DNA of 64,000 nt from Escherichia coli (GTDB lineage Bacteria > Pseudomonadota > Gammaproteobacteria > Enterobacterales > Enterobacteriaceae). Below the pieces are notes generated by a model, which saw only the letters and a program-made list of their open reading frames with translations, was not told where the DNA came from and searched no databases. The stretch lies in NCBI RefSeq assembly GCF_048403405.1, contig NZ_CP183129.1; one strand, given 5' to 3'. The translations under genes and the position numbers were made by a program. The first letter of the stretch is position 1, and every line of letters begins with the position of its first letter. Of this stretch, positions 4,296 to 4,612 are shown in pieces.

Positions 4296-4612
4296 GATTC
4301 ATCCACCTTTTTTGTCGTACCGTGTCCTCCTTATAATTCTTTTGCCATCTGCTCACTATCAAAAATCGCTCATAATCTCTGAAGTACAGGTATGCGATCA
4401 AACCCAGCTAAATAAATAGCGATTTAACTTGAAGCAATTTATTTAAAAATGAATTATTAATTATTATCGTGTTGATAATGGTACTACCAGGCAAAACAAC
4501 ACATTACGTACAAAACAGAAAATCAACATTACGGCAACAATAAGGGTTCTCGGTGTTTTTCCTGGAACATGGTAAAGTAAGGACATTCTTAACCCCCACT
4601 TTGAGGTGCCCG

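Follow-up and report, generated by a model that had tools for sequence, protein, structure and literature searches.

The zur-DUF2713 spacer of Escherichia coli as a probable junction of two unrelated regulatory regions

In the E. coli strain analyzed here, the zur gene and a divergent gene encoding a DUF2713 protein are separated by 317 bp of AT-rich DNA, spanning positions 4296 to 4612 of the window (the whole 64,000-nt stretch under study, to which all coordinates refer). This spacer is probably the junction of two unrelated regulatory regions, an ancestral zur core promoter and the upstream end of an acquired island. It is already known from K-12, where it forms an H-NS-bound promoter island adjoining the zur promoter. 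The genes of the region follow one another in the order qor, pspG, dusA, a 318-aa ORF (the DUF2713 gene), zur, yjbJ, dinF, lexA, dgkA and plsB.

Anatomy of the spacer and the zur core promoter

A first-pass annotation of the sequence had described a long, AT-rich spacer between zur and a divergent yjbL/yjbM-like gene. The limits it gave are correct: the DUF2713 ORF, on the minus strand, starts at 4295 and the zur ATG is at 4613, leaving 317 bp (4296-4612) between the two start codons. The zur coding sequence (4613-5128, plus strand; 171 aa) was identified from an ORF call and a match to the Fur-family profile. The base composition was also accurately described, the GC content being 36.6% in the spacer as opposed to 51.0% across the 64-kb window, in which just 6% of 317-bp segments are equally AT-rich. 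The string quoted as an example of this composition, aatgaattattaattattatcgtgttgataatggtactacc, is found at 4448-4488. GC content is uneven along the spacer: it is 33.6% between 4296 and 4545, a value identical to that of the DUF2713 gene, versus 47.8% between 4546 and 4612.

The boundary between the two parts was set at 4545/4546 because strain LF82 (phylogroup B2) shares the spacer from 4546 onward only; the step in GC content agrees with this position. In LF82, the dusA and zur neighbors lie 155 bp apart and the segment corresponding to 2889-4545 is swapped for 133 unrelated bases, alignment to the window resuming at 4546. At least 80% of the spacer is present in 4273 of 5426 complete E. 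coli genomes (approximately 79%), with identities ranging between about 89% and 100% in the sampled matches, and the length of the spacer is 311 to 319 bp in every sampled strain that carries the island. In most of the remaining E. coli genomes, among them those of ST131 and other strains, the match is confined to the last 50 to 65 bp or so.

The 67-bp segment at 4546-4612 (plus strand), which we take as the ancestral zur core promoter and 5' leader, is the only part of the spacer common to island-free E. coli, and it is conserved in an alignment of 76 distinct sequences. Three conserved blocks are apparent in the alignment: CTCGGYGTTT at 4549-4558, GAACATGrTAAAGT at 4565-4578 and GAGG at 4603-4606. 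The central block includes an extended -10 element, TGgTAAAGT (4570-4578, plus strand), in which a TGn is followed by a TAnnnT hexamer (TAAAGT, 4573-4578) at a suitable distance from the gene; the element stands 35 bp before the zur ATG. Apart from the r at 4572, all of its positions are conserved in 85% or more of the 76 sequences. The upstream block (CTCGGtGTTT in the window, plus strand) occupies the -35 position and is strongly conserved across the Enterobacteriaceae despite bearing no resemblance to TTGACA, the sigma-70 -35 consensus; it is this poor -35 that causes a simple consensus promoter scan to miss the extended -10 of zur. The downstream block (plus strand) is the core of the zur Shine-Dalgarno (SD) sequence, 6 nt before the ATG at 4613. 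A composite motif, CTCGGYGTTT-N5-9-ACATGRTAAAGT, is present in one copy per locus, every time just upstream of zur.

The alignment was made from 90-bp segments preceding zur in the window and in 80 Enterobacteriaceae loci, which together yielded the 76 distinct sequences. The 80 loci came from a Zur-protein scan in which each bacterial species was represented by one genome.

Judging from the spacing, zur transcription should start near A4585 and produce a leader of about 28 nt. The gene would be driven by an extended -10 sigma-70 promoter with the conserved, non-consensus block at -35, and translated from the GAGG motif. Since this predicted promoter is wholly contained in the 67 bp shared with island-free strains, the basic promoter of zur would be independent of the AT-rich tract. 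If only these last 67 bp belong to zur, this will be useful in the design of zur promoter fusions and in comparisons of zur expression between B2 and non-B2 strains. As for the upstream block, it may serve as an operator or as a promoter element of an unusual kind; together with the hypervariable DUF2713 cassette described below, it is one of the two leads of more interest at this locus.

A point against the proposed core promoter is that the promoters predicted in the K-12 spacer by Shimada et al. fall at other positions (4460-4500), albeit with hexamers that are not conserved. The zur promoter of that study (TTGATA-17-CATAAC; PMC3946193, Table 1) has its counterpart, by strain alignment, at 4472-4500 on the plus strand, where AACAAC takes the place of the -10. 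As this -10 is not conserved and the site sits in DNA missing from B2 strains, zur is unlikely to be transcribed mainly from here.

Origin of the insertion and the DUF2713 gene

The AT-rich part of the spacer is one end of a larger insertion (2889-4545; 1657 bp, 34.9% GC), which is replaced by 133 bp in LF82 and includes a substitute 5' end for dusA. Atypical GC content, patchy distribution and definable boundaries (at approximately 2889 and 4545) identify it as a horizontally acquired island. No DUF2713 gene was found between dusA and zur in any of the 80 loci from other species of Enterobacteriaceae, E. albertii and E. whittamii included; these two species and other Escherichia lineages have the dusA-zur arrangement of LF82. 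The neighbor of zur had been called an acquired gene in the first-pass annotation, and its absence from both B2 E. coli and the 80 loci, together with its 33.6% GC content, bears this out. In other genera, the dusA-zur interval contains a cupin gene of 162 to 186 aa and/or a TraF_2-like outer-membrane gene of about 400 aa, neither of which is found there in Escherichia.

The left boundary of the island points to the dusA gene as the entry site. Integrases specific for dusA insert at the 5' end of the gene and replace it (Farrugia et al. 2015, PMC4482086). The window and K-12 share a DusA N-terminus (...GRFSV) that differs from the type found in LF82, other Escherichia, Citrobacter and Klebsiella (M.AES...HRFSI). 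In the window (2873-2976) as in K-12, the ancestral 5' end of dusA has been replaced. Furthermore, 16 bp separate the break near 2889 from the junction of an element integrated in dusA in O157:H7, whose integration left a fragment of the dusA 5' end next to the DUF2713 gene. Thus, the insertion shares with dusA-specific islands and prophages (PMC4482086) the replacement of the dusA 5' end and a break near a bona fide junction. It differs from them in measuring just 1.66 kb and in carrying a single gene: apart from the dusA 5' end, 2889-4545 has DUF2713 as its sole annotated gene, no integrase was found in this interval, and no attL/attR direct repeat was detected at the two island boundaries, whose longest shared word is 6 nt. 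At best it would be a decayed remnant of such an element, and this is what the 1.66-kb insertion looks like. Its entry through the dusA integration hot spot would have carried the DUF2713 gene along. The DUF2713 gene would then adjoin zur as a result of where the island landed, and the adjacency of the two genes is best explained in this manner rather than by shared metal regulation.

The DUF2713 gene (3339-4295, minus strand) is intact in the window and encodes 318 aa (Pfam DUF2713, E=2.6e-67). It was rightly described as yjbL/yjbM-like: the K-12 locus is the same, down to a 317-bp spacer, and yjbL (84 aa) and yjbM (235 aa) are the frameshifted halves of its equivalent. For this locus, PGAP annotates one frameshifted DUF2713 gene, and the curated record lists yjbL and yjbM. 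A terminator-like hairpin was found by sequence scan downstream of the gene (3272-3301, minus strand). Weak Rfam matches at 3200-3305 (AgrB-like, E=0.26; ncr1015, E=0.81) overlap this hairpin; they are below the gathering score and probably due to chance.

Relative to the alleles that other E. coli strains carry at this site, the window allele has 69% to 76% identity in DNA and 52% to 67% in protein, and both flanks of the gene are 90% to 99% identical among strains. The first 43 residues of the window protein are identical to those of another allele type, a pattern that suggests a mosaic produced by recombination. The conserved spacer and the left flank could act as homology arms for the swapping of divergent DUF2713 alleles, as a cassette under diversifying selection. 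We regard this role of the flanks in cassette exchange as speculative, with a low probability.

The function of the protein was sought by several routes. PADLOC gave no match, the family matched in PHROG is of unknown function, and no match was obtained among phage genomes or solved structures; the AlphaFold model is poor (pLDDT 57). Searching 1.84 billion representatives with the DUF2713 profile produced 53 matches, which makes this a tiny family; most are fragments, and the few distant full-length relatives are unannotated. Two of the latter were traced to gut-metagenome contigs. On such contigs, the distant relatives (397 to 426 aa) lie beside ISL3/mutator transposase genes, or beside a SopD/pentapeptide-like gene and a KfrA_N gene; such neighborhoods hint at mobile, possibly effector-like cargo. 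In a literature search for yjbL, yjbM and DUF2713, almost all yjbM matches concerned the B. subtilis alarmone synthetase, and the mentions of the E. coli genes were limited to a listing as an "unknown, young gene" and to one mutation in a laboratory-evolution study.

Search for Zur and Fur operators

The first-pass annotation had raised the question of whether Zur or another metal-responsive regulator controls the acquired gene. The answer from the sequence is negative for Zur, the scan for Zur boxes being empty, and the Fur-like scores are at or near chance. Two Zur patterns were used, TGWNAYRWTATAWYRTNWCA and GAAATGTTATA-N-TATAACATTTC (a structure-based pattern and a 23-bp consensus, both quoted in PMC4219657). 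Neither matches anywhere in the 64-kb window at three or fewer mismatches. The best scores in the spacer, 13/18 and 12/22, are at or below the mean of dinucleotide shuffles; the znuA-znuC spacer of K-12, used as a control, scores 18/18 and 20/22. Scores of 12 to 13 were obtained in all seven other E. coli spacers tested as well as in the dusA-zur spacer of LF82. Hence, while the spacer resembles the regions bearing the Zur boxes of znuABC, zinT, ykgM and pliG (Gilston et al. 2014, PMC4219657) in being AT-rich promoter DNA in a zinc-homeostasis neighborhood, it departs from the pattern that defines those boxes. In the same study, a genome-wide Zur-box search of K-12 promoters returned four only, among them the three already known and pliG, a new target. 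Our literature search found no report of zinc- or Zur-dependent repression of the DUF2713 gene. At the level of sequence, Zur control is effectively excluded, and the absence of a Zur box argues against naming the DUF2713 gene a new Zur target from its adjacency to zur alone. A zur promoter devoid of a Zur operator also implies that zur would not be autoregulated at this site.

The picture for Fur is less clear-cut. The 19-bp Fur consensus, GATAATGATAATCATTATC, has no match at three or fewer mismatches, and its best score in the spacer, 12/19, is matched or beaten by 52% of the shuffles. The 7-1-7 unit (from the reading of the Fur box by Baichoo and Helmann, as cited in PMC4219657) scores 11/14 at 4455-4469, a value reached by 5% of the shuffles. 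This match is part of a Fur-like AT-rich tract at 4455-4479, which also includes a pair of inverted hexamers, ATTATC-N5-GATAAT, at 4463-4479 and is, overall, at or near chance. The tract has in common with Fur boxes the GATAAT and ATTATC hexamers and the 11/14 match, but the arrangement of the hexamers is not canonical and the 19-mer score is at chance level. Genuine Fur-regulated spacers (fepA-fes, fepD-entS and fepB-entC) score 13 to 16 out of 19 and 11 to 13 out of 14, and the spacer falls only just below the weakest of these true controls, fepA-fes, with its 13/19 and 11/14. The main texts of two Fur regulon papers make no mention of zur, yjbL, yjbM, dusA or yjbJ. From its sequence, the spacer is unlikely to be under Fur control.

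Altogether, the presence in the spacer of a Zur or Fur operator, through which a metal-loaded repressor would act on the DUF2713 gene or zur and allow induction under zinc or iron limitation, appears very improbable. The divergent arrangement with zur would fit such an operator, as would the hexamers, a 7-1-7 match that 5% of the shuffles reach and the modest scores of the weakest true control, fepA-fes (13/19 and 11/14). These points are outweighed by Zur scores no better than the shuffle mean, by the short list of K-12 promoters with a Zur box, by the frequency with which shuffles attain the Fur score and by the dusA hot spot, which accounts for the adjacency without any metal regulator.

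The AT-rich tract and its counterpart in K-12

The distal part of the spacer (4296-4545, 33.6% GC), the regulatory end of the DUF2713 island, is orthologous to the spacer part of the zur/yjbL promoter island of K-12. The latter is one of 78 promoter islands described by Panyukov and Ozoline (2013; PMC3661553), as entry 4258129_526, zur(-)/yjbL(+). There, GIST classifies it as a genomic island, two studies of gene origin call it foreign, and each of the three ChIP data sets shows it bound by H-NS (class 'A'). The same report describes promoter islands as producing little full-length transcript. In addition, the sigma-70 (RpoD) holoenzyme was shown to bind the K-12 zur<>yjbL spacer in vitro by genomic SELEX (Shimada et al., PMC3946193), in a study which, unlike the three ChIP studies, flagged no H-NS site there.

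The two loci are orthologous, with spacers that are both 317 bp long and 95.6% identical. Like the K-12 island, the window tract is AT-rich, crowded with promoter-like sites and located beside a horizontally acquired gene; unlike the K-12 allele, the DUF2713 gene of the window is intact, and its DNA is just about 70% identical to that of K-12. In its K-12 definition, the island begins some 100 bp away from zur and extends into the gene. This corresponds to approximately 3985-4510 in the window, by our own conversion of the U00096.2 coordinates, and leaves the zur core promoter outside.

The SD sequence of the DUF2713 gene, GGTGGA (4302-4307, minus strand), is 6 nt before the ATG at 4295 and is conserved in the alignment. 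The best candidate promoter is TTGATA-18-AATTAT (4333-4362, minus strand). It is a prediction only, with a putative start near 4326 and a leader of about 30 nt; in O157 strains the -35 is kept and the -10 becomes ACTTAT in the alignment. The yjbLM promoter predicted in K-12 (TTGTCG-18-AATAAT; PMC3946193, Table 1) aligns with 4460-4489 on the minus strand, where the -35 reads TGGTAG; it was rejected as the main promoter because this -35 is not conserved among strains. The claim that the spacer holds promoters for both genes is nonetheless upheld, by sigma-70 binding in the K-12 SELEX experiments, by the conserved extended -10 before zur and by the TTGATA-18-AATTAT candidate before the DUF2713 gene.

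The 250-bp tract would thus represent the upstream end of the insertion. It would supply the DUF2713 gene with a ribosome binding site and with at least one plausible sigma-70 promoter, located some 40 bp ahead of the start codon; a further 180 bp or so are crowded with promoter-like hexamers. By analogy with its K-12 counterpart, it would bind both RNA polymerase and H-NS and be largely silent as a result of xenogeneic silencing. Silencing in this strain is extrapolated from the K-12 literature on H-NS and RNA polymerase binding. The tract shares with the H-NS-silenced upstream regions of acquired genes a GC content 17 points below that of the genome, a lineage-restricted distribution, a location 5' of an acquired gene and, in its K-12 orthologue, H-NS binding; no anti-silencer is known for it. 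If this interpretation holds, the locus would be a textbook example of an acquired AT-rich gene that lies, with its silenced upstream tract, beside a core regulator and outside the regulon of the latter.

One may ask whether the distal 250 bp have any regulatory role at all, or whether they are leftover island DNA next to a decaying, unexpressed passenger. The frameshifts that disrupt the DUF2713 gene in K-12 and in strain 503025 would fit the latter possibility, as would the lack of a known function for DUF2713 and the paucity of full-length transcripts from promoter islands noted in PMC3661553. On the other hand, the gene is intact here and in most of the sampled strains, in the form of very divergent but open alleles, and both the length and the sequence of the spacer are well kept. 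We consider a passenger without regulatory DNA to be a rather unlikely explanation.

The conservation of the tract, 90% to 99% where the DUF2713 coding sequence is about 70% identical, suggests either constraint or a use as recombination arms. A constraint of this kind could reflect the operator of some other regulator, which would displace H-NS (as a LeuO/SlyA/Ler-type anti-silencer might) and turn DUF2713 on in a particular condition. One possible site is the ATTATC-N5-GATAAT sequence at 4463-4479. Another is an inverted repeat at 4409-4445, TAAATAAATAGC / GCAATTTATTTA, whose 12-nt arms are separated by 13 nt; it is mildly unusual, being equaled in no more than 3.3% of the shuffles, and could be the operator of some regulator. 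Such a mechanism is compatible with H-NS silencing. However, no known motif was identified in the tract, chance easily makes repeats in AT-rich DNA, and the conservation may simply denote recent shared ancestry of the flank. An operator of this type therefore seems unlikely, and we favor the reading of the tract as the H-NS-silenced end of the island.

The length of the spacer, 317 bp, would also accommodate a small RNA, a small protein or a long structured 5' leader regulating zur or the DUF2713 gene. Short ORFs are present, and a transcript begun at the predicted yjbLM promoter of K-12 would have a leader of approximately 158 nt (PMC3946193). Yet no Rfam match was found in 4296-4612 even at E<=1, and folding z-scores of -0.10 and -0.46 for the two strands indicate no excess stability relative to shuffles. 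The short ORFs overlap the true start codons and are unsupported, and the interval between zur and yjbL is empty in the curated K-12 record. An RNA or peptide encoded in the spacer is accordingly a most improbable alternative.

The DNA of the K-12-type promoter island stops, on the upstream side, about 25 bp short of the extended -10 of zur. An H-NS-bound island at this place could conceivably modulate zur in approximately 79% of E. coli, to the exclusion of B2 strains, a proposal that we rate as a long shot. If it did, zinc homeostasis would have lineage-specific set-points, differing between island carriers and B2 strains.

The density of promoter-like sites was also compared along the window. 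The 300-bp segments within 4201-4550 contain 13 sigma-70-like sites, the highest count in the 64 kb (mean 1.6, sd 2.2), as measured with a crude hexamer scan; the original criterion for promoter islands was PlatProm. This density is largely an effect of AT-richness, since other low-GC tracts of the window score close to it. Two such tracts have a high density of promoter-like sites. The one at 12259-14266 carries, beside malM, a gene for a SopA-like pentapeptide-repeat protein (12333-13913), and the one at 45655-48425 carries a ShET2-enterotoxin/ankyrin gene (46140-48335); both genes encode type III effector-like proteins. A short low-GC tract is also found at 26620-27396, with less than 40% GC over 500 bp.
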